Position numbers and translations under genes: made by a program. DNA of 64,000 bases from Streptosporangiaceae bacterium (GTDB lineage Bacteria; Actinomycetota; Actinomycetes; Streptosporangiales; Streptosporangiaceae): assembly GCA_050698755.1 (NCBI GenBank), contig JBOHCK010000001.1, forward strand, positions 140 through 64,139, given 5' to 3'. The notes under the pieces are model-generated. The model saw only the letters and a program-made list of their open reading frames with translations. It did not search any database and was not told the DNA's origin. The first letter of the stretch is position 1, and each line of letters begins with the position of its first letter. This document shows, one piece after another, positions 6,096 to 30,617 of the stretch.

Positions 6096-6100
6096 CGCGC

Positions 6101-7597: not shown

Positions 7598-7611
7598 CAG
7601 GTGGAGGCGGG

Positions 7612-8376: not shown

Positions 8377-8391
8377 GGAGGAGGGCGCCAG

Positions 8392-10596: not shown

Positions 10597-10608
10597 GAGG
10601 GATCCGCC

Positions 10609-11715: not shown

Positions 11716-11721
11716 CCCGGT

Positions 11722-14280
11722 TCACCGGTTGCGCCACCGCGGCGCGCGCTGCTCGCTGAGGGCCTTCATCCCCTCCGCCGCGTCGTCGGTCAGCATCGCC
11801 TGTTCGAGCGCGTCCCCGGTGCTGTTCACCGCCGCGACGGTATCGGCGATGCCCCGGGTGTCGGCCATGATCTGCAGCGCCGAGCGCACCGCGCTCGGGG
11901 ATCCGGCCAGGATCTCGCCGGCCAGTTCCCGCGCTCCGGCGAGCGCGGCGCCCGCCTCGGTGACCCGGTTGACCAGGCCCCACCGGTGCGCCTCGGCCGC
12001 GCCCATCCGCCGCCCGGTCACGATCAGCTCGGTCGCGATCTTCTCCGGTACCGCGCGCGGCAGCCGGACCAGCCCGCCGGCGCCCGGCACCTGGCCGGCC
12101 CGGACCTCGCCCAGCCTGAACGAGGCGGCGGCGTCGGCGACCACCAGGTGGCACGCGAGCGCGATCTCGCACCCGGCGCCTTCGGCCAGGCCGTTCACCG
12201 CGGCGATCACCGGTTTGGGCATCGATGCGCGGCTGGTCAGGCCGGCCTGCCCGTTCAGCGGCACCCAGGCCCGCTGTCCGGTGGCCGCGTAGGCCAGATC
12301 CTGGCCCGCGCAGAACGACTGCTCCCCGGCCCCGGTCAGCGTCGCGCCGGTCAGCGTCGCGCCGGTCAGCGTCGCGCCGGTCAGCGTCGCGCCGGTCAGC
12401 GTCGCACCGGTCAGCGTCGCGCCGGTCAGGACCGCGCCGGTCAGGATCGCGACCCACAGGTCGGGATCGGCGAAGTACGCGTCGAAGATCTCGTCGAGCT
12501 CGTCGTTGGCCGGCGGGTGCAGGGCGTTGCGCACCTCCGGGCGGCTGATCGTGACCTCGAGCAGGTGGCCGTCGCGGCCGACCGTGACGTGCTCGTACTC
12601 CTCGCGCAGCCCGGACCGGCGGGCGGGGAACAGGCTGTCCATCCGCGCCCGGGTGCGGGTGACGTGATTACCGGCGGCGAAGGCCCGCGCGTACACGGCG
12701 GCGCCGAACGGGTCGCCCTCGCCGAGCAGGTCGAGCAGCTCCTCATCGCCGGAGGGAACCGTGGCGACGAAACGCCGGCCACTGCCGTCCAGGTGGCCGC
12801 TGCCCAGGTGGCCGCTGCCCAGGTGGCCGCTGCCCAGGTGGCCGCTGCCCAGGTGGCCGCTGCCGTCCAGGCGGCCGATGACGATGCCGCGGCGGTGGCC
12901 GTCCCGGCCGTGCCTGACGGTGAACGTCTCGATGACCGCCGGCCCGCGCGGGCGGCGGTCGACCTCCACGCGCGGCCGCTCGTCCAGGCTCGCCTGCAGG
13001 GCACCGCTGCGCCCCGGCTGCCACGGCGTCGGCCGGGTGGTGTAGACGCCCGCCGAGTACTTGCCCATGATGCCGCCGTTGGCGCCGACGAAGCCGAAGC
13101 TCCCCGGAGCCTGCCGCGCCCGGTGCAGGGTCTCGACGATGGCGTGCATCGAGTAGTTGTTCCCCGCCCCGCCGAAGTACGGCAGGCCGCCCGTCAGCGT
13201 GAGCCCCCGCGGGTCATCCGCGGCCAGGCCGAACGCGTCGCAGATGTTGAACACCGGGATCGGGAAGCAGCTGTACAAGTCGATGGTGGCGACCTCGGCC
13301 ATGGTGATGCCCGCCAGCTCGAGCGCCAGCTCGCTGGCCCGGGCCGCCGCGGGGCTGCGAGACAGGTCGGGCCGGGTCAACAGCAGCTGCTCGCGCGCGT
13401 CCGCGTGCCCGGCCAGGAACACCCACCGTTCCTCGGGCACGCCGAGCCGCCGGGCGGCCGCGATCGAGGCGAGCACGACCGCCGCGCCCTGGTTGACCTG
13501 ATCGCGGGCCACCAGGTAGCGCGGATAAGGCTCGGCGATGAGGCGGTTAGCCTCGCTCAACGTCACCAGCTCGGCGGCGTCCCTCCTGACCGGCGAGGCG
13601 GCGAACGGGTTGGCCGCCGCGACCTCGGTGAACGGGGCGAACAAGGCGCCCATCCGGGCCGCGTACGCCTCCCGGCTCAGCCCCTCCCGGGCGCGCCGGG
13701 CGTTCTCGAGCAGCGCGTACTGGCTGGGCGCGTCGGTCAGCCCGTGCGCGGCCAGGTGCCGTGAGCCGAGCCCGGCTAGCCCGTAGCCCCGGTCCTCGAG
13801 GCTGCCGCCCACCGTCTCGGTGAAGTCGGGGCGGTCGGCGGCGCCGGCGAAGTGACGCGCGGTCGAGATCGCCTCGGACCCGACGATCAGCGCGACCTGC
13901 GTCTGGCCGGCCGCGATCGACCCGGCCAGCTCGGTGACCAGGTGCTGCGGAGCCTGGCCCCCGCTGACCTCCAGGATGGCCCGGCCGGGCCGGGCTCCGA
14001 TCCGGGCGGCGACGGCTCGCGGGTAGTTGTCGGCGCGGCCCAGGGGAGCCCGGGCGAACGGCGTGGTCGTCTCGAACTGCCGTACCCCGGCGATCGTGTC
14101 CACCGCGGCCGTCAAGGCGGCCAGGTCGGTGCCGCAGTCGGCCAGGGCCGCGTGCGCGGCCTTCGCCGCGAGCCCGACCGCGGACAGCCGCGCATAGTCG
14201 GCCGCGCCCAGCCGGTCGATGGTCTGGCCCCCGCCGATCAGGACGGGAGTCCGCGGGTCAAGCCCGGCCCAGTCGCTCAT
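11722..14280 (-). CDS. thiolase-fold domain fused to a crotonase/enoyl-CoA hydratase domain, with two internal pentapeptide repeat tracts
   Basis: 852 aa. The N-terminal ~440 aa is thiolase-like (DLYSCFPIP..., LTGGLPYFGGAGNNYS). The C-terminal ~300 aa is crotonase (ISRPEVRNAL, FCAGQDL, VNGLAEGAGCEIALACH). (GSGHL)x5 lies in the linker and (LTGAx)x8 in the hydratase domain. Confidence 0.75.
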   Translation of the reverse strand: MSDWAGLDPRTPVLIGGGQTIDRLGAADYARLSAVGLAAKAAHAALADCGTDLAALTAAVDTIAGVRQFETTTPFARAPLGRADNYPRAVAARIGARPGRAILEVSGGQAPQHLVTELAGSIAAGQTQVALIVGSEAISTARHFAGAADRPDFTETVGGSLEDRGYGLAGLGSRHLAAHGLTDAPSQYALLENARRAREGLSREAYAARMGALFAPFTEVAAANPFAASPVRRDAAELVTLSEANRLIAEPYPRYLVARDQVNQGAAVVLASIAAARRLGVPEERWVFLAGHADAREQLLLTRPDLSRSPAAARASELALELAGITMAEVATIDLYSCFPIPVFNICDAFGLAADDPRGLTLTGGLPYFGGAGNNYSMHAIVETLHRARQAPGSFGFVGANGGIMGKYSAGVYTTRPTPWQPGRSGALQASLDERPRVEVDRRPRGPAVIETFTVRHGRDGHRRGIVIGRLDGSGHLGSGHLGSGHLGSGHLGSGHLDGSGRRFVATVPSGDEELLDLLGEGDPFGAAVYARAFAAGNHVTRTRARMDSLFPARRSGLREEYEHVTVGRDGHLLEVTISRPEVRNALHPPANDELDEIFDAYFADPDLWVAILTGAVLTGATLTGATLTGATLTGATLTGATLTGATLTGAGEQSFCAGQDLAYAATGQRAWVPLNGQAGLTSRASMPKPVIAAVNGLAEGAGCEIALACHLVVADAAASFRLGEVRAGQVPGAGGLVRLPRAVPEKIATELIVTGRRMGAAEAHRWGLVNRVTEAGAALAGARELAGEILAGSPSAVRSALQIMADTRGIADTVAAVNSTGDALEQAMLTDDAAEGMKALSEQRAPRWRNR
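12332..12451 (-). repeat. 15-bp in-frame tandem repeat, about 8 copies (ccggtcagcgtcgcg)
   Basis: Six near-identical units plus two diverged units. Encodes LTGAV/LTGAT x8 ending in LTGAG. One unit carries a single G-to-A change. Confidence 0.95.
12789..12863 (-). repeat. 15-bp in-frame tandem repeat, 5 copies (ccaggtggccgctgc)
   Basis: Five perfect copies encoding (GSGHL)x5 between the thiolase-like and hydratase domains. Confidence 0.95.
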
Positions 14281-15251: not shown

Positions 15252-16616
15252 CTAACCGTCCAGCTGGCCTTCGTCCCAGTAGCCGGGCACCCACCGCAGG
15301 ACCTCGGCCCGGAACTCGCCCTCGCACTCGAGCTGGCAGAGCACGCCGATGCCTGCCGTAGACACGCGGTGGATGAGCACGTAGGAGGGCGGCAGGTTGA
15401 ACTTGCGCGTGATGTTGCTCGCGCGCATGTCGGTGACCCGGGCGGCCTCCCCGCGCAGCCATTCGCGGTTGAACTTGAAGCAGTCGACCTTGGACGGCTC
15501 GGCCATCGGCGCGAGGAAGGCCTGCAGCACGTCCAGGTCCACGTCGATGCCGGGGCGCAGGAACCCGTTGGCGCGTAGTTCTCGCTCGACTGACTCGATG
15601 TCCGGGTCGTCCTCGTGCATGATCCGCAGCAGTCGGCCGAAGAACGGCGGCAGCCCGCCCGGCAGGTGATCGACCGCGCCGAAATCCAGCACACCTAGCC
15701 GGCCGTCCTCGAGCAGCCGGAAGTTACCTGGGTGCGGATCGGCGTGCAGCAGCCCGGCCCTGGCCGGCCCGGAGAACAGGAACCGGACGAGCAGGATACC
15801 GGCCCGGTCGCGCTCTTCCCTGGTGCCGTCGCTGATGATCGCCGACAGCGGCGTGCCGTCCATCCACTCGGTGACCAGGACGTGCTTGGTACCCGCCACG
15901 ACGTCGGGCACGTAGATGTCGGGGTCGTCCGCGTAGGCCACGGCGAAGGCGTGCTGCGAGGCCGCCTCGAGCTCGTAGTCGAGTTCCTCGGTCACCCGGT
16001 CGCGCAGCTCGTCGAGCAGGGGCTTGACCTCTAGCCCGGGCATCAGCATGCCGAACAGCCGGCCGGCCCGGCTGAGCTGGTTAAAGTCGCTGATCAGCGC
16101 GCGCCCTGCCCCCGGGTACTGGATCTTCACCGCGACCCGCCGGCCGTCGTGCCAGACCGCCTGGTGCACCTGGCCGATGGACGCCGCCGCCGCCGGCGAT
16201 TCGTTGAACTCGGCGAAGTTCTCCCGCCAGGCCTCGCCCAGGTCACCGACCAGGACCTGGCGCACGCTGCGGGCGGGCAGCGGCGGGGCGGATTCCTGCA
16301 GCTTGGTCAGCGTGGCGCGGTACGGCCCGGCGATCTCGGGCGGCAGCGCCGCCTCGAAGATCGACAGCGCCTGGCCCAGCTTCATGGCGCCGCCCTTGAG
16401 TTCGCCCAGGACGCGGAAGATCTGGTCGGCCGTGCGCTGCTGGATCTCCTGGGCGACGATCTCGGCCGGCCGCCCTCCGATCCGCTTGCCGACCCCGATC
16501 GCCGTGCGCCCCGCGAGCCCGATCGGCAGCCTGGCCAGCTTCGCGGCCCGGCCTACCGTGGTCCGTGGCACCTCACTCGCGCGGGCATTGTCCCGCGTCG
16601 CTGACGTCTCGTTCAT
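15252..16616 (-). CDS. ABC1/UbiB-family atypical protein kinase
   Basis: 454 aa. GGAMKLGQALS, ASIGQVHQAV, VAVKIQYPG and HADPHPGNF are ABC1/AarF kinase motifs. Confidence 0.85.
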   Translation of the reverse strand: MNETSATRDNARASEVPRTTVGRAAKLARLPIGLAGRTAIGVGKRIGGRPAEIVAQEIQQRTADQIFRVLGELKGGAMKLGQALSIFEAALPPEIAGPYRATLTKLQESAPPLPARSVRQVLVGDLGEAWRENFAEFNESPAAAASIGQVHQAVWHDGRRVAVKIQYPGAGRALISDFNQLSRAGRLFGMLMPGLEVKPLLDELRDRVTEELDYELEAASQHAFAVAYADDPDIYVPDVVAGTKHVLVTEWMDGTPLSAIISDGTREERDRAGILLVRFLFSGPARAGLLHADPHPGNFRLLEDGRLGVLDFGAVDHLPGGLPPFFGRLLRIMHEDDPDIESVERELRANGFLRPGIDVDLDVLQAFLAPMAEPSKVDCFKFNREWLRGEAARVTDMRASNITRKFNLPPSYVLIHRVSTAGIGVLCQLECEGEFRAEVLRWVPGYWDEGQLDG

Positions 16617-16666: not shown

Positions 16667-17752
16667 TTACCGCGTCGTTACGGCACGGGGGCCAACGCGA
16701 ACCCGAACCGCGCCGCAGGCACACGACGGATGCGGTGGCCAGGTCCGGCGCCGCCACTGCCAGTCCGGGAGAACCACTTCGAGGGTCCCGTTCACGGTAG
16801 CCGGGACCGCGGTCGCGGGGATCAGCGGGGCCGACCCGGCCTGGTCGATGAACGCCAGGGCCTGCGCGGAGGCCATCGTGGCCGTCATGGCGGCCAGCAC
16901 GGTATCGCAGGCCTGCGGCTGGGCCGGGGCGAAGGTGGCCTGGGCCAGGATCTTAGGCCAGGCCGGATCCCCGTCGGCCTTGCGCATGTCCACGCAGCGC
17001 AGACAGGCCGACCGCCCCGGCCGGACCAGCGGCCCGACCACGCCGATCGCCTCGCTGGCCCAGACGGCCAGATGGGGCACGCGGTCACGCAGGAGGCCCT
17101 CGGTCAGGTCCGGCAGCGCCGGGGCGGTGAGGATCACCAGGTCGGGTACCGCGCCGTCGTCCAGGGTCCTGACGTCGGGGGCTGCCCGCCCGACCGCCCG
17201 GGCGGCGCCCTCCTGCCTCGGCTCGCCCAGGTCCGCCCGGATCAGCCCGGCGGGCGCGAGATCGGCAGGCCGGGCCGCTCCCGAATCGGTGCACGTGACG
17301 TGCCCCACGCCGGAGGCGGCCAGGAAGGTCGCGACGCACGCGCCGGTCCGGCCCGCCCCGTGGATCCTGACGAAGGCGGCCCGGCGGCGCGCCAGGGTGC
17401 GGGCCCCGCCGTCCCCGTCCGCGTACGCCAGCGAGGCGGTCGCGAGTTCCGGGGCCAGGCGCGCCCGCAGTTCGTCGGGGAGGCTGGCGTGCAGCCGGGC
17501 CGGGTAGTCATCGAGCACGCCCGCCGCCGCCAGCACCGCGAGCACGTCGCTGGCCGCCTGCTCGCAAACGCCGTACGTCCCGGCCGTGGCGATGACCGCC
17601 GCGCGATCCCGGCTCCCGTCCAGCAGGCTGATGACGGCCGCGGTCCGGCCGAGCCCGCCAATCGCGACCGCCCGCCGCGGATCCACGCCCACCTGCAGCG
17701 TGTCGCGGTCCCGCCACACCGGCAGCAGCCCCGCCTTCAATGCTGGCCTCAT
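16667..17752 (-). CDS. ThiF/MoeB/E1-like adenylyltransferase-fold protein
   Basis: Likely start is the internal Met at 17752 (MRPALKAGLLPVW...). Rossmann-like VRIHGAGRTGACVATFLAASGVGHVTCTD. CLRC and CAC Cys pairs lie near the C-terminus. Start uncertain (17752, 17776 or 17833). Confidence 0.6.
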   Translation of the reverse strand: MRPALKAGLLPVWRDRDTLQVGVDPRRAVAIGGLGRTAAVISLLDGSRDRAAVIATAGTYGVCEQAASDVLAVLAAAGVLDDYPARLHASLPDELRARLAPELATASLAYADGDGGARTLARRRAAFVRIHGAGRTGACVATFLAASGVGHVTCTDSGAARPADLAPAGLIRADLGEPRQEGAARAVGRAAPDVRTLDDGAVPDLVILTAPALPDLTEGLLRDRVPHLAVWASEAIGVVGPLVRPGRSACLRCVDMRKADGDPAWPKILAQATFAPAQPQACDTVLAAMTATMASAQALAFIDQAGSAPLIPATAVPATVNGTLEVVLPDWQWRRRTWPPHPSCACGAVRVRVGPRAVTTR

Positions 17753-17829
17753 AGCCACATGCTGACACCAAGCCATGACATTCCCGAACGGTGCCCTTCC
17801 GGGAAAGGCCGCGCACACCCCTTGACGAC

Positions 17830-18998: not shown

Positions 18999-19379
18999 CT
19001 ATCGCTCCGACTGCGCGGTTGGCGAACCACCGTCCCGCTGCTGGCCGGCGGCAATCCTGATGGCGGCGTCGATGGACTCGACCGAGTATTTCGGCCCCAT
19101 GTCCCGCAGGGCCCGGCCCAGATCCATCATCCAGCTCGTTTCCGCCAGTACGGACTGACCGTCGAATACGGCCGCGCCGTCGGGATCCGAGGTATCGATC
19201 ACGGGCAGGCGATCAACGCTGGCCGCGATTCGCACCGCCGCCAGCCGGCCGGTGGCCAGCTCGGCCTGGAGCGCCTTGATCCGCCTTCTCCTGGAGTGTC
19301 CCTCGCCAGCCTGGACCGCCAGCTCGCGCAGCCCCTGCAGGACGTCGACGAGCTGCGCCAGCCGTTCCTGATCGATCAT
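18999..19379 (-). CDS. hypothetical protein
   Basis: In-frame ATG at 19379 (MIDQERLAQLVDVLQG...) overlaps the stop of the upstream YoaK-like gene (ATGA). The rest of the 276-aa ORF is antisense-like R/G-rich sequence. Confidence 0.45.
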   Translation of the reverse strand: MIDQERLAQLVDVLQGLRELAVQAGEGHSRRRRIKALQAELATGRLAAVRIAASVDRLPVIDTSDPDGAAVFDGQSVLAETSWMMDLGRALRDMGPKYSVESIDAAIRIAAGQQRDGGSPTAQSER

Positions 19380-20239
19380 CTGGTCCCTCTCCTCCCATCT
19401 GCGCGGGCCTGCCCGGCCGTCCGGGCCCGAGGCCAGGTGGCCAGCACGACGCAGGTGATCAGCGCGGCCAGCGGAAGGGCCGGGACACCGTCCGGCGCGG
19501 TCGCCACGAGCAGGCCAGTCAGGCTGGCGCCCGCCGCGAGCCCGAGCAGGACCCCGAGGCGCCGCCAGCGGTCCGGAGCGCGCGGCCCCGGGCTGACCAG
19601 CGAGCTGACCAGCCCGGTCAAGGTCCCGGTGAGGTAGGTGGTCGACACCTCGGTCAAACCCATGTTCTTGACCGCCGATGACTGTACCCCCATCCCAGCC
19701 GCCGCCATCGCGAGCAAGCAGAACTGCACCCACCCGCCCGGCCGGGCCCCGGTGACCTCCCACCCAACGGCGAACCCGCCGAGCAGGGCCAGCTCGGCCA
19801 GCAGCGCCCAGGTGATGTGAACCGGCCACGCCCCCGCCCGTCCCTCGCCCGCCTGCGCGTCACCCTCCTTGCCCTCTGCGTCCTTGCCGCCCCCGCCCCC
19901 GTCCTTCCCGATCCCGATCCCGCCCGCGTCCTTCCCGGCCCCGACCCCGCCTCCGCCCACGTCAGCCGCGGTCCGGCCGCTCGTCCCCCGGGCACCCACG
20001 GCGATGCGGCTGCCGCAGACCACGCCGGCGATGTACCCGAGGATGGCGAGGGCCGTGTGACTGGCCAGCGTCAGCGACCCGCGGGCCGCGGCGAGCCCCC
20101 ACAGCACGATGTTCCCCGTCATGACGCTGGTGAAGACGGTCCCGAGCCTGGTGAAGCTGGCCACGTCCATCGCCCCCGACGCGAACGTCAGCGCGACCGC
20201 GATCACCGTCAAGACCTGCCCACTCGGCCTATGGTCCAT
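19376..20239 (-). CDS. YoaK/DUF1275-family membrane protein with a Gly/Lys/Asp-rich loop insertion
   Basis: Start at the internal Met (MDHRPSGQVLTVIAVALTFASGAMDVASF...TGN), typical of the DUF1275 N-terminus. Multiple TM segments. Confidence 0.7.
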   Translation of the reverse strand: MDHRPSGQVLTVIAVALTFASGAMDVASFTRLGTVFTSVMTGNIVLWGLAAARGSLTLASHTALAILGYIAGVVCGSRIAVGARGTSGRTAADVGGGGVGAGKDAGGIGIGKDGGGGGKDAEGKEGDAQAGEGRAGAWPVHITWALLAELALLGGFAVGWEVTGARPGGWVQFCLLAMAAAGMGVQSSAVKNMGLTEVSTTYLTGTLTGLVSSLVSPGPRAPDRWRRLGVLLGLAAGASLTGLLVATAPDGVPALPLAALITCVVLATWPRARTAGQARADGRRGTR

Positions 20240-20553
20240 GGCCCGCAAGGAGATCACCTCAGGACCCCGCCAGGCAAGCCGGACCCCTTGCCGCCGAACC
20301 ACAACGCTCCTGCCTGGGGGTCGCCGACCCATGCCTGAGACCCCATGAGTCACGAGTGAGTGGTGGATCCAGTGAGTTTGGTGTTGCGTATAGCCCTGGA
20401 ATTATCCTCCCGGTAAAGATGCCGGACCCTCGTACCCCTGAGCGAATAGATGCAGCTGTGGTCAGCGGGACAACTGAGGCACCGGGAAAGCGTAGGCCAG
20501 ACCGCCCGGCGCTACCGAAGCCGGCGCCAGGTCGAGTCGGGCAAAGACCGAGG

Positions 20554-21810
20554 TCACTCCGGCTCGACCCGGACGGCCCGGGCCCAGACCGGCGCGTCGG
20601 GCGCGCCGGGGCCGAGCAGCCCGACGACGACCCGCATCCCCTTGGGCGGCGCCGACGGCCAGGGCGTGTACCCGTCGGTCAGCACGACCGTGACGGCGGG
20701 CCTGGGCCGCAGCGCGGCCGCGGCCTCGATGCCCGCGCCCATGTTGGTGCCGCCGCCGCCGACGAGCTGCACCTGGCGGGCCGAACTCACCCGCTGCGCG
20801 GGCGCGACCGCGTAGTCGCAGGCCAGCACCCGGACCTGCCGGGCCAGCCCGAGGGCCTGCAGCAGCCCCTCGACCTCGGATAGCGCCATGGACAGCAGCG
20901 ACTCGGTCATGCTGCCCGAGGTGTCGCAGACCACGGCGACCTCGGGCACCGGCCGGCGCAGCGCCGGGAGCACGACGTCACCCGCGACGGCGGACCGGCG
21001 CGAGGGCCGCCGGTAGGAGTAGTCGACGGCCCCGGACACCTCGAAGACCGCCCGGCGCAACTCGGCGGCGAGCACCTTGCGCCAGTTGACCCGCGGGCTG
21101 AGGACCTGTTCCGCCCAGCGCAGCATCCCGGCCGGGACGTCCCCGGCCAGCTTGGCGTGCGAGATGACGTCCTGCGCGACCTGGCGCCGCAGCAGGTCCG
21201 CCTGCCAGTCAGGCAGCCCGCCCGGCTCCTGGCCCGGCCGCGGCACCCCGTCCGCGCCGCTCCCGCAGTCAAGCCAGCCGGCCTCCGCATCCCCGGCTTT
21301 TTCCTGACCCGAACGGCCCGTGGTTTCTCCCCCGATCCCGCCCTCGAGTCCCTGAACCGAACGCCGCCCGTCCCGGATCACCGCGTAATACTGCTCGGCC
21401 AGCAGCCCGTCCTGCGCGCCCAGGTCCCGGGGGAGGACCGGGCTGCCGGGCAGGTCAAGCCCGGCCGGCACCAGGTCGTCGTTGATCTCCGCGTCCGCCG
21501 CCCTGATCCAGTCGCGCGCGTCGCGCCCCCGGTCCTCGCCCGCGCCGACCCCCGAAGCCTGGGCCCGCTCCGCGTGGGTCCGCAGCAGATGGCACACGTG
21601 GTGGACCAGCACGCTGCCGAGCTGCGCCGGGGTCCACTCGGCGGTGAGCTCGGGATCGACGCGCATCCGCCAGTTCTCGTCCACCGACACGGTCCCGCTC
21701 CCCGGGTCGGCGATCACCTGCGCCCCGAACACCCCGGTGGCCAGGTAGGGGAACCGGGTCGCCGCCCACAGCCGGGCCGCCGCCAGTCCCTCGATCCTGC
21801 CGCCGGACAT
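20554..21810 (-). CDS. VWA-domain protein with DUF2201-type putative metallopeptidase N-domain
   Basis: 418 aa. The N-domain has HHVCHLLRTH where the family normally has HExxH. The C-terminal VWA domain has a complete MIDAS (DTSGSM ... GGGTNM ... LTDG). Start is 12 nt after the AAA+ stop. Confidence 0.75.
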   Translation of the reverse strand: MSGGRIEGLAAARLWAATRFPYLATGVFGAQVIADPGSGTVSVDENWRMRVDPELTAEWTPAQLGSVLVHHVCHLLRTHAERAQASGVGAGEDRGRDARDWIRAADAEINDDLVPAGLDLPGSPVLPRDLGAQDGLLAEQYYAVIRDGRRSVQGLEGGIGGETTGRSGQEKAGDAEAGWLDCGSGADGVPRPGQEPGGLPDWQADLLRRQVAQDVISHAKLAGDVPAGMLRWAEQVLSPRVNWRKVLAAELRRAVFEVSGAVDYSYRRPSRRSAVAGDVVLPALRRPVPEVAVVCDTSGSMTESLLSMALSEVEGLLQALGLARQVRVLACDYAVAPAQRVSSARQVQLVGGGGTNMGAGIEAAAALRPRPAVTVVLTDGYTPWPSAPPKGMRVVVGLLGPGAPDAPVWARAVRVEPE

Positions 21811-21822
21811 CGCCCGCCGGGC

Positions 21823-22923
21823 CTACATCAGGCCCGCGTCGCGCAGGACCGGGGCGAACAGCTTGATCTCGGCGGGCATCTGCACGACGCCCGCGGGGCG
21901 GCACTTGGCGAGCACCCGCGCGGCCGTGGCCCCGACGTCGGGTGCGGTCTCGGCGGCGAGGCCGAGGACCTGCCAGCCGGCGGCCCAGCGCTCCGGGGTC
22001 GGGTTGGCCGCGACCGCGGCCGCGATCGCGGCCAGCGCGGCGTACGCGCGGTCGCCTCGTTCCGGCAGCCGGAACGAGGCCGGGTCGGCCAGGACCTGCT
22101 CCGGGTCGGGCAGGTCCATCTGGACCAGCCAGGCCAGGAACTCCACGCCCGCGCCGTCGCCGACGGCCCCGGCGATCAGGGCCGACCGCGCCTCATCCGA
22201 CGCGCCGGCCGCGCCCGCGGCGGCCATCAGGCGCGCCGCCATGTCCCAGGTCCGAGGCGACGGCCAGCCGCGCCCCGCCGTCGCCGGGTCGGACGGAACC
22301 GCGCACGCCAAAGCGGGCCTGACGTGCAGGAACGCGGCGACCAGGCCGCGGGCCATGATCTGTTCGGCCTCCCAGCCGTCGGGCAGCAGCGGGACCACGG
22401 GGGCCGCCCAGCCGCCGGCGAGCCCGTCGGCCACCGCCCGCGGGTCGGTCCGCCAGGCCAGGTGGCAGAGCCGGTTGGCCAGCGGCGCGGACAGGTCCCA
22501 GCCGTCGGCGGCCTGCTCGGGCGGGTTGGCCGCGGCCACGACCGCGACCTCGTCCGGCAGGACCAGGTCGCCCACGGCCCGCTCGAGCACGACCCGCAGC
22601 AGGGCGGCCTGGACGGCGGGCGGCGCGGTGGACAGCTCGTCGAGGAACAGCAGGCCGCGCCCGGCCTCGGCCAGCCGGCGCGCCCACGCCGGGGGAGCGA
22701 ACCGGACGCCGTCGCCGACCACGATGGGCAGCCCGGCGAAGTCGGAAGGCTCCCTGATCGAGGCGATGACCGTCTCGCAAGGCAGGCCCATCGTCAAAGC
22801 CATGGCCCGGATCGCGGAGGTCTTCCCGGTGCCAGGCGCGCCCCACAGCAGCACGGGCACCCGGGCCGCGACCGCGACCCCGAGCGCCTCGGCCGCCGGG
22901 TTCGAGCCAGGGGTAACGCTCAC
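21823..22923 (-). CDS. MoxR/AAA_5-type AAA+ ATPase
   Basis: Walker A is LLWGAPGTGKTS and Walker B is LLFLDELS. VVAAANP sensor region present. GTG start overlaps the upstream stop (GTGA at 22920-22923). The 5' extension to 23235 is R/A/G-rich and overlaps the upstream gene. Confidence 0.8.
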   Translation of the reverse strand: MSVTPGSNPAAEALGVAVAARVPVLLWGAPGTGKTSAIRAMALTMGLPCETVIASIREPSDFAGLPIVVGDGVRFAPPAWARRLAEAGRGLLFLDELSTAPPAVQAALLRVVLERAVGDLVLPDEVAVVAAANPPEQAADGWDLSAPLANRLCHLAWRTDPRAVADGLAGGWAAPVVPLLPDGWEAEQIMARGLVAAFLHVRPALACAVPSDPATAGRGWPSPRTWDMAARLMAAAGAAGASDEARSALIAGAVGDGAGVEFLAWLVQMDLPDPEQVLADPASFRLPERGDRAYAALAAIAAAVAANPTPERWAAGWQVLGLAAETAPDVGATAARVLAKCRPAGVVQMPAEIKLFAPVLRDAGLM

Positions 22924-23876
22924 ACCTCCCAGTGTGGCGCATGGCCGGCACCGTCGCCGCCATCGTGCACGTCGAGCGGCTCGGGCTCCGCGCCGGGGGC
23001 GCGCATCCCGAGCACCCGGGCGTCGGGCCATCCCGCCCGCTCCACCGCCACCACGAGGTGCCGGTCCACCAGCGCCAGCCCGGCCGCCCAGACCCGGGCC
23101 AGCCACGAGGGCGACAGGGCGACCCGCAGCCTGCGCTGCTCGCCCCGCCCGGTCAGCTCGACCGACCCCCAGCCCAAGGCCCCGGGCCCGGCGTGCAGTG
23201 ACACGACGACCTGGTCCGGGTCGAGCCCGAGCCACTCTTCCGCGATGGGCCCGAGCCGGCCGGCCATCGCGGCCACCAGAGCGGGCCGGGCCCGCTCCTC
23301 GGCCAGCTCGCCGGAACCGGCACCCGCGTCCGCGTGCGCCGCGGCGACGTGCCCGGCCAGCCTGACCTGGAACCCGTACCCGAGCGCGAGCAGCGACAGC
23401 ATGTCGGTCCTGCGCCGCCGGACCAGCTCAAGCTCCTCCTGGGCGCGCCGCCGCCTGCGCTGCACGCCTGCGGGCACCGACGGGTGCAGCCCCGCCGTCT
23501 GCCGCGCCGCCACCTGCATGGCCGGGGTGGTCCCGGTGAAGGCAAACGCGCCGGGCGCGCCCGGCATCGCGGCGGCTACGTCGTCCCAGCCGATGGCGAT
23601 CTCGTCGCCGGGGCCGCGCGGGCCGATGGCGAGCACCGACAGGTCCTCGGCGTGCCGCGCCCACGCCTGCGCCACCTCTACGCACCGGGCCTTCTCCCCG
23701 CCCAGGGCGGCCAGCACGAGCTCGGCCTCGGCGTCGGGGTGCTCGGGCAGCCGCAGCGATCCCGCCTCCCAGCGGACGGCGTGCGTGCCCTGGCCGCACG
23801 GCACCCTGGCCTCGCAGCTGGGCAGGCAGGCATACCACTCGTCGTTCGGGATCACGGTCACGCAGGGTACCCCCAC
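22920..23876 (-). CDS. hypothetical protein (MoxR/VWA operon partner 2)
   Basis: 318-aa ORF (GTG at 23876, or GTG at 23861 overlapping the upstream stop as GTGA). N-terminal Cys/His cluster CLPSCEARVPCGQGTH. No family recognised. Confidence 0.55.
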   Translation of the reverse strand: MGVPCVTVIPNDEWYACLPSCEARVPCGQGTHAVRWEAGSLRLPEHPDAEAELVLAALGGEKARCVEVAQAWARHAEDLSVLAIGPRGPGDEIAIGWDDVAAAMPGAPGAFAFTGTTPAMQVAARQTAGLHPSVPAGVQRRRRRAQEELELVRRRRTDMLSLLALGYGFQVRLAGHVAAAHADAGAGSGELAEERARPALVAAMAGRLGPIAEEWLGLDPDQVVVSLHAGPGALGWGSVELTGRGEQRRLRVALSPSWLARVWAAGLALVDRHLVVAVERAGWPDARVLGMRAPGAEPEPLDVHDGGDGAGHAPHWEV

Positions 23877-25363
23877 TGCAGCGGTAGCGTGGCGCAGACC
23901 TCAGCCGAACGCCCGGCCACGCGCACCTCGATCCAGGCCGTGGAGCGAGCCAGCCCCGGCCTCAGCTTCATCCGCAGCCAGTACTCGCCGTCAGAGAACT
24001 GCACGCCGTCCACCCCGGCGACGTGCCACCGCCCGCCGCTGTCGCGCACCCACACCGACACCGGCAGGTTGTCCACGATGGGCGGGCCGGTCCCGTCGTC
24101 CTCCGGCAGGCCTCTCACCAGCACGTGCAGGATGGTCTGGCCGTCGGTGTTGTGCAGGCCGAGCAGGGCCAGCCTCATCCCGTCGAACTCGGGGAGGGCG
24201 ACGGCCAGGGGGGCGTGGCCCTCGCGGGCGGGCGCCATGTCCGGCTTCCTGCGCTGGTAGTGCGAGAGCAGGCTGAGCCACCGCTCGGGCAGCTCGGGCC
24301 CGGGCGGCGCAGTCAGGCCGTGCCCGGTGACGCTCAGGCTGGCGCACAGCGCGGCGAGCTGGCCGGGCACCTGGCTATGCGGCGGCAGGACCTCGGCGGC
24401 CTCCAGCGCCGCCACGACGTCGCCGAGTCCCGCGGTCATGGCGTGGAGCGGCGCCCGGGCGTACGAGGTCCGCCGCAGGTCGGGCCCGTGCTCGCTGACC
24501 GCCATGAGCAGCCGGTCCGCGAACACGCTGAGCATCTGCTCGCCGAGGGACAGATCGGTCGGCGTGACCTGCGGCCCGGCGCCGTCCGGCCGAACTGGGC
24601 CCGGCTCACCCAAGGTGATGCGCACGGGCTTCTGGCCGGGCGCGGCAAGCTCCAGCCAGCGCAGGCCGTCCGGCGGGTCGGGATCCAGCCTGATCTCGCC
24701 GGCCCAGTCGGTGAAGCTGAAGTTCACCTGGTACGAGTTGCCCCGGTCGTCCGACACCGTGAACAGCCGGGGGAGAATCGGGCTCCCGAAATGCCGCCCC
24801 ATCAGCGCCTGACCGAGCGGGCTCCGGGTCCGCCAGGTGACGGTGAACCGCGCCCCGGCCGACGTGTGCGCGTAGGAGAGCAGGTTCACCTCGCCGCTGA
24901 CGTCCTCGTGGCGGAACGGGACGCTCAGCCCGAGCGGGACGTAGCAGTCCGGCCCGCCCGCGCCGACCGCGACCGCGCCCAGGCCGGCCGCGCCCGGGTC
25001 GGGCGCCCCCCACCAGGCCCGCGCGTACAGCCTGCCCCGGGTCAGCGCGGGCCTGGTCAGCAGCAGCGGACCTGGGTCCGAATGCTGCCGAACGCCGACC
25101 GCGATCGCAAAGTCGGCCAGGACGTCCTGCGCGGCCGTCACGTCGATGGCGCGTACCGCGGCCAGTGCCTGCGCCACCCGCGCCAGTCGCGGGAAGCTGG
25201 TGGCGGGGCTGTCGCCCGACCACGGCGCGCCGGAGATGAACGTCGCCCCTTCGCGGGCAGCGCGCAGCTCAGTCTCGGCCATCAGCCGCAGGAACGTCTC
25301 CGCGCGCTCGCGGTTCATATTGTCCAGTGTCGCCCCGTCCAACCACCCAGGCGTCCACTCCAA
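23858..25363 (-). CDS. hypothetical protein (MoxR/VWA operon partner 1), apparent internal duplication
   Basis: 501-aa ORF (TTG at 25363, alternative ATG at 25318). It contains two similar helical-plus-beta-rich modules. No family recognised. It starts 36 nt downstream of the CBS gene. Confidence 0.55.
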   Translation of the reverse strand: MEWTPGWLDGATLDNMNRERAETFLRLMAETELRAAREGATFISGAPWSGDSPATSFPRLARVAQALAAVRAIDVTAAQDVLADFAIAVGVRQHSDPGPLLLTRPALTRGRLYARAWWGAPDPGAAGLGAVAVGAGGPDCYVPLGLSVPFRHEDVSGEVNLLSYAHTSAGARFTVTWRTRSPLGQALMGRHFGSPILPRLFTVSDDRGNSYQVNFSFTDWAGEIRLDPDPPDGLRWLELAAPGQKPVRITLGEPGPVRPDGAGPQVTPTDLSLGEQMLSVFADRLLMAVSEHGPDLRRTSYARAPLHAMTAGLGDVVAALEAAEVLPPHSQVPGQLAALCASLSVTGHGLTAPPGPELPERWLSLLSHYQRRKPDMAPAREGHAPLAVALPEFDGMRLALLGLHNTDGQTILHVLVRGLPEDDGTGPPIVDNLPVSVWVRDSGGRWHVAGVDGVQFSDGEYWLRMKLRPGLARSTAWIEVRVAGRSAEVCATLPLQWGYPA

Positions 25364-25399: not shown

Positions 25400-25804
25400 T
25401 CAGGCGGAGGTGGTCACCGGCTGCGGTGCCTCGGCGGAGGTCCAGACGCGGACGATGTCGCGCATGGAGAGCAGTCCGGCCACGTCGTGGCCCTCGATCA
25501 CGACCAGGTGCCGGAACCCGCCGTTGATCATCGCCGCGGCGGCCTCCTCCAGGGTCCACTCGGGCGAGGCGTACACGAGGTCTTCTGTCCGGTGCTGGGC
25601 GACGAGCTCGGCGTCAGGGTCTTCGCCCAGGGCGATCGAGTCGAGGAGGTCACGTTCGGTGAGGATGCCGATGCCCGCGTGCTCGGTGTCGATGACGACC
25701 GCGGCGCCGATGCGCCGCTTGGACATCATCTGCGCTGCCTGCCGCAGCGTGTGCGCTGGCCCGATGGTGAGCACAAGGTGGGACATGCCGTCTCGTACCT
25801 TCAC
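25400..25804 (-). CDS. CBS-pair domain protein
   Basis: 134 aa. Two CBS motifs (RRIGAAVVID...GILTERDLL and FRHLVVIEGHDVAGLLSMRDIV). Confidence 0.85.
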   Translation of the reverse strand: MKVRDGMSHLVLTIGPAHTLRQAAQMMSKRRIGAAVVIDTEHAGIGILTERDLLDSIALGEDPDAELVAQHRTEDLVYASPEWTLEEAAAAMINGGFRHLVVIEGHDVAGLLSMRDIVRVWTSAEAPQPVTTSA

Positions 25805-27281: not shown

Positions 27282-28271
27282 TTACTCGGGCGCGCCCTCC
27301 CGGCTGCGCAGCACCCGGCGCAGCGAGTCAAGCCGCGCCTCCGCGTGGTGCTCGCGCGCCCACTCGTCCAGCGCGCACCCGGAGAGGTGATCGCACCCCG
27401 GCGGGCACCCGGCGGTGCCCTCGGCCAGGTCCCCGAACGCCTCGATCACCTGCTCCTCGCTCACGTGCCCCAGCCCGAACCCGCGCAGCCCCGGCGTGTC
27501 GATGAGCCACCCGTCGCCCAGTGGCAGCGCCACCACCGACGACGACGTGTGCCGGCCCCGGCCGGTGACCGCGTTCACCCTCCCCACGGTCCGGGCCGCC
27601 TCCGGGACCAGGGTGTTCACCAGCGTGGACTTGCCGACGCCGGACTGCCCGATGAGCACGCTGATCCGGCCGGTCAGCACGTTCCGCACCCGGGCCAGGG
27701 TCCGCGGCGACAGCGGTCGCCTGGTGGTCAGCATGGGCAGCCCGAGCGGGGTGTAGAACGCGCGGACCTTCCGCGGTGACGCCAGGTCGGCCTTGGTCAG
27801 CAGGAGCAGCGGGTCGATCCCCGCGTCGTAGGCCGCGACCAGGCAGCGGTCCACGAAGCGGAGCCTGGGCGGCGGCTGGGCCAGCGCGCAGACGACGACG
27901 AGCTGGTCGGCGTTGGCGACGATGATCCGCTCCAGCGGGTCCGTGTCGTCCGCCGAACGCCGCAGCACGCTGGTCCGCGGCTCCACCCGGACGATCCTGG
28001 CCAGCGACCCCTGCTCGCCCGAGGTGTCCCCGGCCAGCGCGACCCGGTCGCCCACCACGACCGAGCCCTTGCCCAGTTCGCGCGCCTTCATGGCGATGAC
28101 CAGGCGGTCGTCCGCCATGCACCCGTACCGCCCGCGGTCCACGCTGGTCACGAAGCCCTCGACGGCACTGTCGTGCGCGGGGCGCCGCCTGGTCCGCGGG
28201 CGGGAGCCCCGTCCGGGCCGGACCCGGACGTCGTCCTCGTCAAGCCGCGCGTAGCCGGGCCGCGGGCTCAG
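27282..28271 (-). CDS. rsgA: ribosome small-subunit-dependent GTPase A
   Basis: LLLLTKADL (G4), GQSGVGKSTL (G1), DTPG (G3) and a C-terminal Cys cluster. The conserved N-terminal segment (YARLDEDDVRVRPGRGSRPRT...) lies upstream of the track start at 28151. The only candidate start is CTG at 28271, overlapping the aroA stop. Confidence 0.75.
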   Translation of the reverse strand: MSPRPGYARLDEDDVRVRPGRGSRPRTRRRPAHDSAVEGFVTSVDRGRYGCMADDRLVIAMKARELGKGSVVVGDRVALAGDTSGEQGSLARIVRVEPRTSVLRRSADDTDPLERIIVANADQLVVVCALAQPPPRLRFVDRCLVAAYDAGIDPLLLLTKADLASPRKVRAFYTPLGLPMLTTRRPLSPRTLARVRNVLTGRISVLIGQSGVGKSTLVNTLVPEAARTVGRVNAVTGRGRHTSSSVVALPLGDGWLIDTPGLRGFGLGHVSEEQVIEAFGDLAEGTAGCPPGCDHLSGCALDEWAREHHAEARLDSLRRVLRSREGAPE

Positions 28272-29614
28272 GGTTTCTGTCCCAACATTGCCGTCCAGAC
28301 CTGCGAGAAAGCGGGGAACGTCTTGCCCACGGTCTCCGCGCCGGCCACCCGGAGGCCTGGGACGGCCAGGCCGAGCACGGCCGCGGCCATCACCATCCGG
28401 TGGTCGTCGTAGCTGCCGAACGGCTCGCCGCCCGCGCGCAGCGGCCGCGGGTTGATGGCCAGCCCGTCGGGCAGTTCGGTGACGTCGCCGCCGAGGGCGT
28501 TGATCTCCTTGGCCAGCGCGGCCAGCCGGTCGGTCTCGTGCCCGCGGGTGTGCGCCAGCCCGGTGAAGACTGAAGGGCCGTCGGCCAGCGCCGCCACCGC
28601 GGTCAGCACCTGTGCGAGCTCGGGGACGTCCCGCAGGTCCGCGGTGATGCCGCGGACGGCGCCCGTCCCGGACAGGGTCAGCCCCTGCTCGCCGACCTCG
28701 CCCTGCGCGCCCATCCGGGCCAGCACATCCAGGATCAGCCCGGCCGCCTGCAGGCTGTCGGTCGGCCAGCCGGGCACGGTGATCGTCCCGCCGGTAATCA
28801 GCGCCGCGGCCAGGAACGGGCCCGCGTTGGACAGGTCGGGCTCCACGGTGATGGCCCCGAGCTCGAGCCGCCCGGGCCGGACCCGCCAGGCGTCGGGGCG
28901 CGGGCCCCCCGCCGCCGATTCGGCGCTCACGTCGGCCCCCGCGGCCGCGAGCATGCGGACGGTCATCGCGATGTGCGGGGCCGAGGGCACGGGCGGGCCC
29001 TCGTGCCTGATCTCGACGCCCTCGCCGAACCGCGGCGCCGCCAGCAGCAGGCCCGAGACGAGCTGCGACGACGCCGAGGCGTCCAGGGTGACGGTGCCGC
29101 CGCGGACCGCGCCGCGCCCCTGCACGGTGAACGGGACCGCCTCGCGGCCGTCGTCGTCGATGTCCGCACCTAGCCGGCGCAGCGCCGCGAGAATCGCGCC
29201 GACCGGGCGCAGCGGCGCCCGCGCGTCCCCGGCGAACCGGACCGTGGCCCGCGTCAGCGCCGCCACCGCGGGCAGGAAGCGCATGACCGTGCCTGCGTTG
29301 CCCACGTCCACGCTGACCATCGAGCCCTCCGGCGGCTGCCCGGGGGTAACACGCCAGGTCGTTCGGCTATCAGGGTTTTGCTCTTGTCCTTCCCCAGCGA
29401 TCTGCGCGCCCAGGGCGCACAGCCCGCTGACGGCGAGCGCGGTGTCCCTGGCCTGCAGGGGGTTGGCGATCAGGGCGGGGGAGTCGCTCAGGGCCGCTAG
29501 GACCAGCGCGCGGTTGGTGATCGACTTGGACGCGGGCAGCCGGATCCGCGCGCTGACCGGGCCGGAAGCGGTCGGCGCAGTCCAGGTCAGGTCCGCCTCG
29601 TCATCCCCATGCAT
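28268..29614 (-). CDS. aroA: 3-phosphoshikimate 1-carboxyvinyltransferase (EPSP synthase)
   Basis: In-frame ATG at 29614 gives 448 aa. LPASKSITNRALVLAAL, DVGNAGTVMRFL and HRMVMAAAVLGL are EPSPS signatures. The longer ORF extension covers an intergenic repeat. Confidence 0.9.
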   Translation of the reverse strand: MHGDDEADLTWTAPTASGPVSARIRLPASKSITNRALVLAALSDSPALIANPLQARDTALAVSGLCALGAQIAGEGQEQNPDSRTTWRVTPGQPPEGSMVSVDVGNAGTVMRFLPAVAALTRATVRFAGDARAPLRPVGAILAALRRLGADIDDDGREAVPFTVQGRGAVRGGTVTLDASASSQLVSGLLLAAPRFGEGVEIRHEGPPVPSAPHIAMTVRMLAAAGADVSAESAAGGPRPDAWRVRPGRLELGAITVEPDLSNAGPFLAAALITGGTITVPGWPTDSLQAAGLILDVLARMGAQGEVGEQGLTLSGTGAVRGITADLRDVPELAQVLTAVAALADGPSVFTGLAHTRGHETDRLAALAKEINALGGDVTELPDGLAINPRPLRAGGEPFGSYDDHRMVMAAAVLGLAVPGLRVAGAETVGKTFPAFSQVWTAMLGQKP

Positions 29615-29653
29615 ACGCCTGAGCGTATCGGTGCCCGCCCCGATCCGCGCCTC

Positions 29654-29768
29654 GCGCTGGCCCTCCCAGGGTTTGGCGGACCCAGCCCGCGCCCCCGGCG
29701 CTGGCCCTCCCGGTTTGGGCGGACCCAACCGCGCCCCCGGCGCTGGCCCTCCCAGGGTTTGGCGGACC
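29654..29768. repeat. direct repeat of about 43 bp, about 2.7 copies, in the aroA/SRAP divergent intergenic region
   Basis: gcgctggccctccc(a)gg(g)tttggcggaccca(g/a)cc(c)gcgcccccg recurs at about 29654, 29698 and 29740 (periods 44 and 42). It is followed by an 8-bp inverted repeat CCTGGATT-N16-AATCCAGG (29767-29798). Confidence 0.85.
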
Positions 29769-29843
29769 TGGATTATGGTTATGAAATGCCAATCCAGGCT
29801 TAACGGGACGTGTCCGGATTCTTTCACCCTGAGGAAGAGTTTC

Positions 29844-30617
29844 ATGTGCGGTCGGTTCGTGTCGGCGCGTAAGCGCCTCGAGCTCCTCGAGGAGTTCAGC
29901 ATCGAACGGGACCGCGTACCCGACGGACCCGAATCGGAGCCTGCGCCGGACTACAACGTGGCGCCGACCAAACGGATCTTCGCGGTCATCGAACGCCCCG
30001 CCCGCGAAGACGAGCCACAGGCCCGTGAGCTGCGCGTGGTCCGCTGGGGCCTGGTTCCCTTCTGGGCCAAGGACGCCTCGGGCGGCGGCCGGCTGATCAA
30101 CGCCCGCGCCGAGACCGTGGCGACCAAGCCGGCGTTCCGCCGTGCGTTCGCCAAGCGCCGCTGCCTCATTCCTGCCGAAGGCTATTTCGAGTGGCAGCCG
30201 GTCGAGCAGGACGGCAAGACGCGCAAGCAGCCTTACTACATCTTCAGGAAGGACGGTGGTGAGCTGGCCTTCGCCGGGATCTACGATCTCTGGCGAGACG
30301 AGGCACTCCCTGACGATCACGAGCGCGCGTGGCTGTGGACGGCCGCGATCATCACGACCCAGGCGTCCGACGACGTCGGCCAGATTCACGATCGCATGCC
30401 CATGACCATCGCGCCGCAGGCCTGGGCCGACTGGCTGGATCCGGCGACCAGCGACCTTGGCCAGCTACAAGCGACGATGGTGCCTGCCATGTCCGGCGGC
30501 CTGACGTCATTCCCCGTATCTATGGCTGTCAACTCAGTGCGGAACAACGGACCCGAGCTCATAAGGCCGCTGCCTGATTCCGCCGAGGGGGAGCGGCCGC
30601 CCAGCGAGTTGTTCTGA
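29844..30617 (+). CDS. SOS-response-associated peptidase (SRAP/YedK, abasic-site processing protein)
   Basis: ATG at 29844 after GAGGAAG. The N-terminal MCGRF (catalytic Cys2), VVRWGLVPFWAKD and IPAEGYFEW are SRAP hallmarks. Confidence 0.9.
   Translation: MCGRFVSARKRLELLEEFSIERDRVPDGPESEPAPDYNVAPTKRIFAVIERPAREDEPQARELRVVRWGLVPFWAKDASGGGRLINARAETVATKPAFRRAFAKRRCLIPAEGYFEWQPVEQDGKTRKQPYYIFRKDGGELAFAGIYDLWRDEALPDDHERAWLWTAAIITTQASDDVGQIHDRMPMTIAPQAWADWLDPATSDLGQLQATMVPAMSGGLTSFPVSMAVNSVRNNGPELIRPLPDSAEGERPPSELF

Follow-up and report, generated by a model that had tools for sequence, protein, structure and literature searches.

The 64,000-nucleotide stretch of contig JBOHCK010000001.1 (assembly GCA_050698755.1, Streptosporangiaceae bacterium) analysed here, hereafter the window, carries on its minus strand, at 20554-25318, four co-oriented open reading frames with a coding-type GC content at third codon positions (GC3 = 0.93-0.96), which we designate A, B, C and D. 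C is a MoxR-type AAA+ ATPase, D joins a zincin-like domain to a VWA domain, and A and B represent two candidate new families of proteins that neither Pfam nor NCBIfam contains. Our preferred reading, held with moderate confidence, is that ABCD forms a MoxR-VWA remodelling system of four components that is autonomous, is vertically maintained in Actinomycetota and is organised as two translationally coupled pairs. The C-D pair is most likely the engine, related to a MoxR/DUF2201 pair of phages and plasmids, with A-B as its dedicated partner. The observations behind this reading are the anatomy of the locus, the co-occurrence of the four genes, their rates of evolution and the association between linkage to A-B and loss of a glutamate in D. 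A, B with a Cys-His-His-Cys (C-H-H-C) tetrad, a MoxR ATPase and a Glu-less DUF2201 protein are found together in the window, in most of 80 related loci and in seven of eight more distant contexts.

Conservation of the neighbourhood was assessed by a genome scan based on the B alignment, using two short B peptide patterns, from which 80 of 108 matches were kept as species-level loci. These loci all come from metagenome-assembled genomes (MAGs) of Streptosporangiaceae/Trebonia-like Actinomycetes, and most of them display the order A-B-C-D, as determined with tblastn and our own gene calls. Approximately half share the same core position (AroA, RsgA, DUF2087, IMPase, CBS, [A B C D], DUF1275); a second group of loci sits elsewhere, and one MAG holds two loci. 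The distant sample consisted of the contexts of B relatives around 30-33% identical, all from Actinomycetota, where the upstream proteins of 410-446 aa are A homologues (hidden Markov model (HMM) E-values of 1e-9 to 1e-20) and where all four genes are present in seven of the eight contexts sampled. Six distant loci (L084, L086, L088, L107, L108 and L109) display the two pairs divergently, D<-C and A->B, with 39-165 nt between the starts; L090 has the same layout with D cut off by the contig end, and in L110 the four genes share one orientation, D and A being separated by two other genes. The flanking genes of the distant ABCD loci are unrelated from locus to locus, and no conserved fifth gene was found in the sampled loci. 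The four-gene association proposed in the initial annotation thus extends beyond this genome, to most of the 80 loci and to distant Actinomycetota.

At the level of the junctions, 64 of 73 loci offer a start codon for B in a 4-nt overlap with the A stop, and the gap from C to D is 30 nt or less in 50 of 55. These statistics, together with the divergent layout, imply that the conserved units are the pairs A->B and C->D, and the coupling of A-B and C-D exceeds chance. It is highly improbable, to the point that we give it hardly any weight, that the four genes are mere neighbours, or the decaying remnant of a prophage or plasmid, with no joint function. C-D homologues do occur on mobile elements without A or B and the B-C junction is sometimes interrupted, but co-occurrence persists down to around 26-33% A/B identity, in two arrangements and among unrelated flanks, all four genes are under purifying selection, and in the window the locus has no mobile-element genes on its flanks.

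In the window, the four-gene minus-strand block of the initial annotation can be read directly from the sequence. The A stop TGA (23858-23860) overlaps the B start GTG (23861-23859) as GTGA, the B stop TGA (22920-22922) overlaps the C start GTG (22923-22921) in the same manner, and 12 nt lie between the C stop TAG (21823-21825) and the D start ATG at 21810. The lengths of 501 and 318 aa first given to A and B correspond to the longest open reading frames and had to be shortened. Because all homologues of A open with MNRERAETF and the public annotation P0001 has 486 aa, gene A most likely starts at the ATG at 25318; for B, homologue alignment leads to a protein of 313 aa starting at the GTG that overlaps the A stop.

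Protein C scores above threshold against the Pfam families AAA_5 (29.5 bits, cut-off 22), AAA_3 (29.9, cut-off 27) and bpMoxR (28.3, cut-off 27), and the coordinates of its Walker A and Walker B motifs (Table 1) agree with its earlier assignment as a MoxR/AAA_5 ATPase. Its nearest sequences in the PDB are the AAA modules of Midasin, it matches phrog_1297 at 1e-51 and it is expected to form a hexameric ring. Protein D matches DUF2201_N (143.9 bits, cut-off 23.2; 1e-41) and DUF2201 (72.1 bits, cut-off 26.4; 6e-20), as well as phrog_1314 at 4e-40. The VWA domain with a full MIDAS (adhesion site that depends on a metal ion) described for it was recovered, with DTSGSM, GGGTNM and LTDG all located and DUF2201 above threshold; DxSxS is present in 55 of 55 clade proteins, as DTSGS in 51, DTSAS in 3 and DRSAS in 1.

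The peptidase domain of D had been suspected of being catalytically altered, as it carries HHVCH in place of HExxH, and this suspicion proved well founded: D lacks the HExxH with catalytic Glu of an active zincin, and the replacement of Glu by His is fixed in the clade, where the motif reads H-H-[VA]-[CSN]-H in all 51 copies in which it was found. The more distant D proteins associated with A and B read HHVGH in one case and HLxxH in the other six. Altogether, the Glu is lost, to His or Leu, in 58 of 58 A/B-associated copies examined and kept in 3 of 3 plasmid and 13 of 14 viral homologues, and HMM searches of 16 viral D loci and of the plasmid neighbours revealed no A or B near these mobile copies. 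Loss of the Glu in D therefore goes together with linkage to A-B. The zincin-like domain is under purifying selection (dN/dS 0.17-0.30) and its three His ligands are kept. Considering that the Glu is lost while the three ligands and the selection persist, D is most likely a pseudo-peptidase, which would bind a peptide segment and leave it uncut. No functional study of DUF2201, PF13203 or PF09967 was found in the literature.

Pairs homologous to C-D occur on actinobacterial plasmids of Rhodococcus, Xylanimonas and Mycobacterium, such as RER_RS00835/RER_RS00840 of Rhodococcus erythropolis pREL1, with 40-50% identity for C and 43% for D, and D homologues on uncultivated viral contigs are 29-50% identical. 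The phage/plasmid MoxR + DUF2201 pair (phrog_1297 + phrog_1314) shares the two-gene core, the overlapping or adjacent genes and the domain architecture of C-D, but differs in keeping HExxHxxxxH with its Glu and in having no A or B nearby. A scan of viral contigs with B and a tblastn search of distant B against plasmids also found none on mobile elements. The C proteins of distant A/B-associated loci are 66-70% identical to that of the window, versus 40-50% for the plasmid copies. The plasmid block, which appears to be uncharacterised, is the closest annotated relative of the C-D pair, and no experimental literature on the phage/plasmid pair was found. This block consists of MoxR, a DUF2201 protein with HEVGH, a protein of ~60 aa, a hypothetical protein of ~390 aa and an SF1-helicase-like protein labelled 'AAA family ATPase'. 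PHROGs (phrog_1314) and many phage records (H32, H35, H41, H44, H47) give DUF2201 zincin-VWA proteins the label 'HNH endonuclease'; since Pfam places the window D, a phrog_1314 match, in DUF2201_N and DUF2201, the label looks like a propagated misannotation.

The two leading proteins, A and B, had been described as matching no recognisable family, and this judgement stands: neither has a curated-family or solved-structure match, and the Pfam, AlphaFold and Foldseek comparisons suggested for both led to no well-characterised family. Zero matches were obtained for either protein in Pfam, NCBIfam and PADLOC (E<=1) and in PHROGs (E<=0.01), and sequence and profile searches of the PDB gave nothing. 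Homologues scanned singly against Pfam gave only noise, the best being DUF7185 at 0.005 in 7 of 62 A homologues and vRNAP_plug at 0.01 in 3 of 42 B homologues. Both families are large nonetheless, with more than 600 homologues for A and, for B, more than 1,390 close homologues and 692 clusters at 50% identity in a profile search (E<=1e-3). Their labels include Streptosporangiaceae, Trebonia, Solirubrobacteraceae, Acidimicrobiales and Actinomycetota.

The AlphaFold2 model of A (predicted local distance difference test (pLDDT) 79, predicted TM-score 0.80) comprises N-terminal helices (residues 1-77), a disordered linker (82-121), a first beta-sandwich (strands at about 125-253), a helical bundle (258-355) and a second beta-sandwich (367-480). 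The two sandwiches display a weak similarity (hhalign P=0.0055) and may derive from an ancient internal duplication, a weakly supported suggestion. In the N-terminal helix E7, R11, E15 and R19 are invariant in the alignment of A homologues, and the core motif A-E-x-[FY]-L-R-L-x-x-E survives in A-like proteins only ~26% identical, the distant N-termini reading FDAELYLRLxGE. Foldseek searches of the model against PDB and BFVD gave no global match and only generic beta-sandwich/Ig-like folds (TMq <=0.17). The best match, 3FBQ (probability 0.99, E 2.4e-3, TM-scores 0.15/0.25, 9% identity), is the ectodomain of the Bacillus anthracis extracytoplasmic function (ECF) anti-sigma factor BAS1627 (PMC6066255). 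Both have helices followed by beta-sandwich domains, a fold-level analogy and not a sign of membership; in most contexts the block has no sigma factor gene next to it, the one of L108 lying ~600 nt from B. Inspection of A by eye, judged without a predictor, revealed no transmembrane segment or signal peptide. Gene A is single in the window and tandemly duplicated in ~20 of the 80 loci, with 2-4 strongly diverged copies before B. Such arrays lie upstream of B (~9001) in L016, L033, L042, L043, L046, L048, L062 and L067, and L073 and L078 have the order A-B-A-B-C-D.

The alignment of B reveals an N-terminal Cys/His domain, a variable linker, a conserved helix and a C-terminal alpha/beta domain. 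From the Cys/His cluster that was first noticed in B, CLPSCEARVPCGQGTH, C22 and H27 are conserved family-wide, but C12 and C16 are specific to the clade. Together with H41 and C60, C22 and H27 form a tetrad that is invariant over 42 sequences, including relatives down to ~30% identity, and W31 and G34 of the same domain are also invariant. This C-H-H-C tetrad probably binds a metal, likely Zn.

The putative metal ligands bear on a quite unlikely explanation, according to which ABCD would be a maturation or metal-insertion chaperone like NorQD, CoxDE, CbbQO and the Mg/Co-chelatases, with the HHVCH...H of D and the C-H-H-C of B handling the metal and A as the client or as a scaffold for an unlinked client. 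Characterised MoxR-VWA pairs commonly serve the insertion of metal centres (PMC13036017, PMC9976466), and D keeps its three His ligands, to which the clade adds one more His and, in most cases, a Cys; the invariant tetrad of B, the stable core location and the housekeeping-like conservation of C point in the same direction. However, the extra His and Cys are not conserved in the distant systems, which have HLxxH, none of the lineages sampled has a metalloenzyme or a metal transporter as a conserved neighbour, and a fast-evolving, duplicating A would be unusual for a housekeeping client.

Evolutionary rates differ strongly among the four components. In 32 syntenic loci, the median identity to the window is 87% for C, 75% for D, 60% for B and 45% for A, compared with 89% for IMPase, 86% for RsgA and 69% for AroA among the neighbours, so C is as conserved as the housekeeping genes next to it. 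The dN/dS values (NG86, versus four close relatives) are 0.50-0.74 for A, 0.37-0.49 for B, 0.25-0.32 for D and 0.14-0.18 for C; as the extreme GC3 compresses dS and inflates absolute dN/dS, we used only the ranking. A is thus the fastest-evolving component and, since it is also often tandemly duplicated, it most likely sets the specificity of the system. Within A, the disordered linker alone reaches a dN/dS of ~1 and the first beta-sandwich has 0.64-0.87. Positive selection on A was considered and rejected, as the gene-wide value is below 1 and ~1 is found only in this linker.

A diversifying A also fits an anti-phage or conflict system, in which A would sense the invader, the MoxR-VWA pair would act as a thresholding switch like that of the MoxR-vWA ternary systems of Kaur et al. 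(2020), and B or A-B would provide a non-enzymatic output such as sequestration or growth arrest. C-D has relatives among phage and plasmid genes, dN/dS is highest for A, which forms 2-4 tandem paralogues in ~20 loci, and the best structural analogue of A is a sensor-type anti-sigma ectodomain. Furthermore, some distant contexts contain helix-turn-helix (HTH) or toxin-antitoxin (TA)-like genes, PIN, or transposases and a recombinase, a second, differently located locus type exists, and one MAG has two loci. Nevertheless, we consider this explanation unlikely: in PADLOC-DB v2, A, B and D had no match and C only weak generic ATPase matches (E>=7e-7, ~30 residues), and no effector domain was found, be it a nuclease, a protease, TIR, a pore-forming domain or another type. 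The main clade maintains a fixed core position (IMPase-CBS-[ABCD]-DUF1275) with a C conserved like RsgA and IMPase, the flanks in other lineages are ordinary housekeeping genes, and the dN/dS of A remains below 1 gene-wide, with ~1 confined to the disordered linker. In addition, the third components defining the published ternary systems were not detected with Pfam.

These published systems are the MoxR-vWA ternary conflict systems of the VMAP, iSTAND, FtsH and beta-propeller types, derived from CoxD-CoxE (Kaur et al., 2020, PMC7159879). Like them, ABCD combines a MoxR-vWA couple with conserved, fast-diversifying components and is Actinomycetota-enriched, and C lies just above the bpMoxR threshold. 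Unlike them, A and B have no VMAP, iSTAND, FtsH, beta-propeller, effector or effector-associated (EAD) domain (Pfam, E<=1), and the VWA of D is of the DUF2201 type and below the VWA_CoxE threshold. A second comparison concerns the layout only. The yehLMPQ-type operons of E. coli, likewise uncharacterised in function, consist of a MoxR ATPase, a VWA protein, a SWIM zinc-finger protein and a large uncharacterised protein, a four-gene layout alike that of ABCD; A and B gave no match to the Pfam SWIM, DUF5682 and DUF5691 families at E<=1.

A MoxR AAA+ ATPase plus a VWA adaptor with dedicated partners is a well-known kind of system, and NorQ/NorD, RavA/ViaA, CbbQ/CbbO, CoxD/CoxE and Midasin likewise consist of an AAA+ (AAA_5/MoxR) motor and a VWA partner with a complete MIDAS; the mechanism expected for ABCD is, as for them, the remodelling of a bound client by ring and adaptor. 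ABCD differs from these characterised pairs in that its VWA is of the DUF2201 type, fused to a zincin-like domain, and in that no nitric oxide reductase (NOR), Rubisco, carbon monoxide dehydrogenase (CODH) or respiratory-complex client lies nearby, the partners being two novel proteins. The association of a Glu-less DUF2201 zincin-VWA protein, a C-H-H-C protein and a double-beta-sandwich protein in two coupled pairs is undescribed in the libraries and literature searched.

The precedent for the engine of our preferred reading is NorQ/NorD, where a 'finger' of the VWA domain inserts into the AAA+ pore, an acidic patch of the client is bound by the MIDAS and ATP hydrolysis remodels a linker (PMC9976466, PMC13036017). 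The physical interactions, the metal binding by B and the cellular output proposed for ABCD are inferred. By analogy with NorQ/NorD, RavA/ViaA and Midasin, D would dock on the hexameric ring of C through its VWA domain. The MIDAS of D, its Glu-less cleft or both would then capture a part of the A-B complex that is acidic or extended, the best candidates being the invariant acidic N-terminal helix of A with its A-E-x-[FY]-L-R-L-x-x-E motif, or a disordered linker. ATP hydrolysis by C would pull on D, and A-B would be switched, assembled or released as a result, with B as a core partner, stabilised by the metal of its C-H-H-C tetrad. A more specific proposal, which we regard as tentative and rather doubtful, is that ABCD is a signalling or immunity module, so far unrecognised and widespread in Actinomycetota, in which a MoxR/zincin-VWA engine like that of phages and plasmids, turned into a non-cleaving 'peptide clamp', gates a diversifying Ig-like beta-sandwich sensor, A, and a new C-H-H-C zinc-finger protein, B.

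Several findings weigh against our reading of ABCD as one remodelling system. The spacing from B to C is variable and exceeds 300 nt in 9 of 72 loci, and some of these gaps hold unrelated genes, a PolA-like family-A DNA polymerase and a UMP-kinase-like gene, both present in L038 (9897-12497) and L056 (10087-13477); in L042 (12448-13209) only the UMP-kinase-like gene was called between B and C. The orientation of the genes is kept in these split blocks. Given these interruptions, the link between A-B and C-D is one of neighbourhood and not of a strict operon. L089 has a B subfamily of 241 aa and an A-like gene (5727-7726) with no C-D within 7 kb. The AlphaFold2 model of B is poor (pLDDT 54), leaving the N-terminal domain with the tetrad unmodelled, and at this pLDDT the Foldseek matches of the model carry no information. 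Neither A nor B contains a recognisable enzymatic or effector domain, their named matches are all 'hypothetical' and all derive from MAGs or metagenomes with the taxonomy of the depositors, and the GC3 effect on absolute dN/dS counts on the same side. As an aside on L089, its A-B pair is flanked by IS110 and ISL3 transposases and a serine recombinase and may be mobile or displaced.

Regarding the surroundings of the block, the CBS-pair gene had been placed 36 nt upstream of A and thought to be perhaps co-transcribed with it. With the 486-aa start the gap becomes 81 nt, and this gene is a clade-specific neighbour, absent from all distant contexts; its inclusion as a fifth component was rejected on these grounds and on its variable spacing. 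A DUF1275 membrane gene, located ~200-250 nt after D and carrying a Gly/Asp/Lys-rich low-complexity insert, is the downstream neighbour in 41 clade loci. It was likewise considered as a member and treated as a neighbour, being conserved only within the clade and absent from distant contexts. A promoter and terminator scan and an Rfam search at the locus gave nothing usable. Further downstream, an ABC1 atypical-kinase gene and a ThiF-family gene have no evident link to ABCD. On the other side, the longest reading frame of AroA (EPSP synthase) has an N-terminal extension of ~100 aa that is probably untranslated, and a plus-strand open reading frame contains an SRAP/YedK-like (SOS-response-associated-peptidase) coding region, recognised by eye, that ends at 30617.

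Table 1. Position of the ABCD genes, of their motifs and domains, and of neighbouring and related loci (window coordinates, except for the plasmid blocks).
Feature	Position	Strand	Remarks
Gene A	23858-25318	-	486 aa from ATG 25318; candidate novel family; alternative TTG 25363 gives 501 aa
Gene B	22920-23861	-	313 aa from GTG 23861; candidate novel family
Gene C	21823-22923	-	366 aa; MoxR-type AAA+ ATPase
Gene D	20554-21810	-	418 aa; DUF2201_N zincin-like domain + VWA
A, N-terminal helix MNRERAETFLRLMAETELR	25262-25318	-	candidate docking element
A, beta-sandwich 1	24551-24955	-	residues 122-256; AlphaFold2 secondary structure
A, beta-sandwich 2	23861-24238	-	residues 361-486; AlphaFold2 secondary structure, pLDDT mostly ~90
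B, putative metal-binding tetrad	23682-23798	-	C22 23796-23798, H27 23781-23783, H41 23739-23741, C60 23682-23684
C, Walker A GAPGTGKT	22819-22842	-	residues 28-35
C, Walker B LFLDEL	22633-22650	-	residues 92-97
C, sensor-1 AAANP	22522-22536	-	residues 130-134; by pattern and spacing
C, Arg-finger region ANRL	22468-22479	-	residues 149-152; by pattern and spacing
D, DUF2201_N zincin-like domain	20959-21780	-	Pfam
D, HHVCHLLRTH, replacing HExxHxxxxH	21574-21603	-	motif search
D, DUF2201 VWA domain	20566-20940	-	Pfam
D, MIDAS elements	DTSGSM 20908-20925, GGGTNM 20740-20757, LTDG 20671-20682	-	complete
CBS-pair gene	25400-25804		upstream neighbour
DUF1275 gene	19376-20353	-	downstream neighbour
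ThiF-family gene	16667-17818	-	
ABC1 atypical-kinase gene	15252-16616	-	
AroA, longest open reading frame	28268-29902	-	
SRAP/YedK-like open reading frame	28452-30617	+	
Plasmid block L081 (Rhodococcus pREL1)	6853-11934		
Plasmid block L082 (Xylanimonas pXCEL01)	6868-12008		
Plasmid block L083 (M. intracellulare plasmid)	6829-12226		

MoxR-VWA pairs are among the commonest uncharacterised ATP-driven machines in prokaryotes, and progress in their understanding hinges on their clients. A and B represent a possible client or adaptor pair, genetically tied to the engine across deep divergence, and the two families could already be curated. If the peptide-clamp proposal were true, ABCD would represent a new class of switch under MoxR-VWA control, founded by two protein families and using a clamp that arose through loss of the catalytic Glu. 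The association between Glu loss and linkage to A-B suggests the hypothesis that the D versions of mobile elements would cleave and the chromosomal version would clamp. Dominant but uncultured Actinomycetota of soil and peat (Trebonia-like Streptosporangiales) frequently carry the system.

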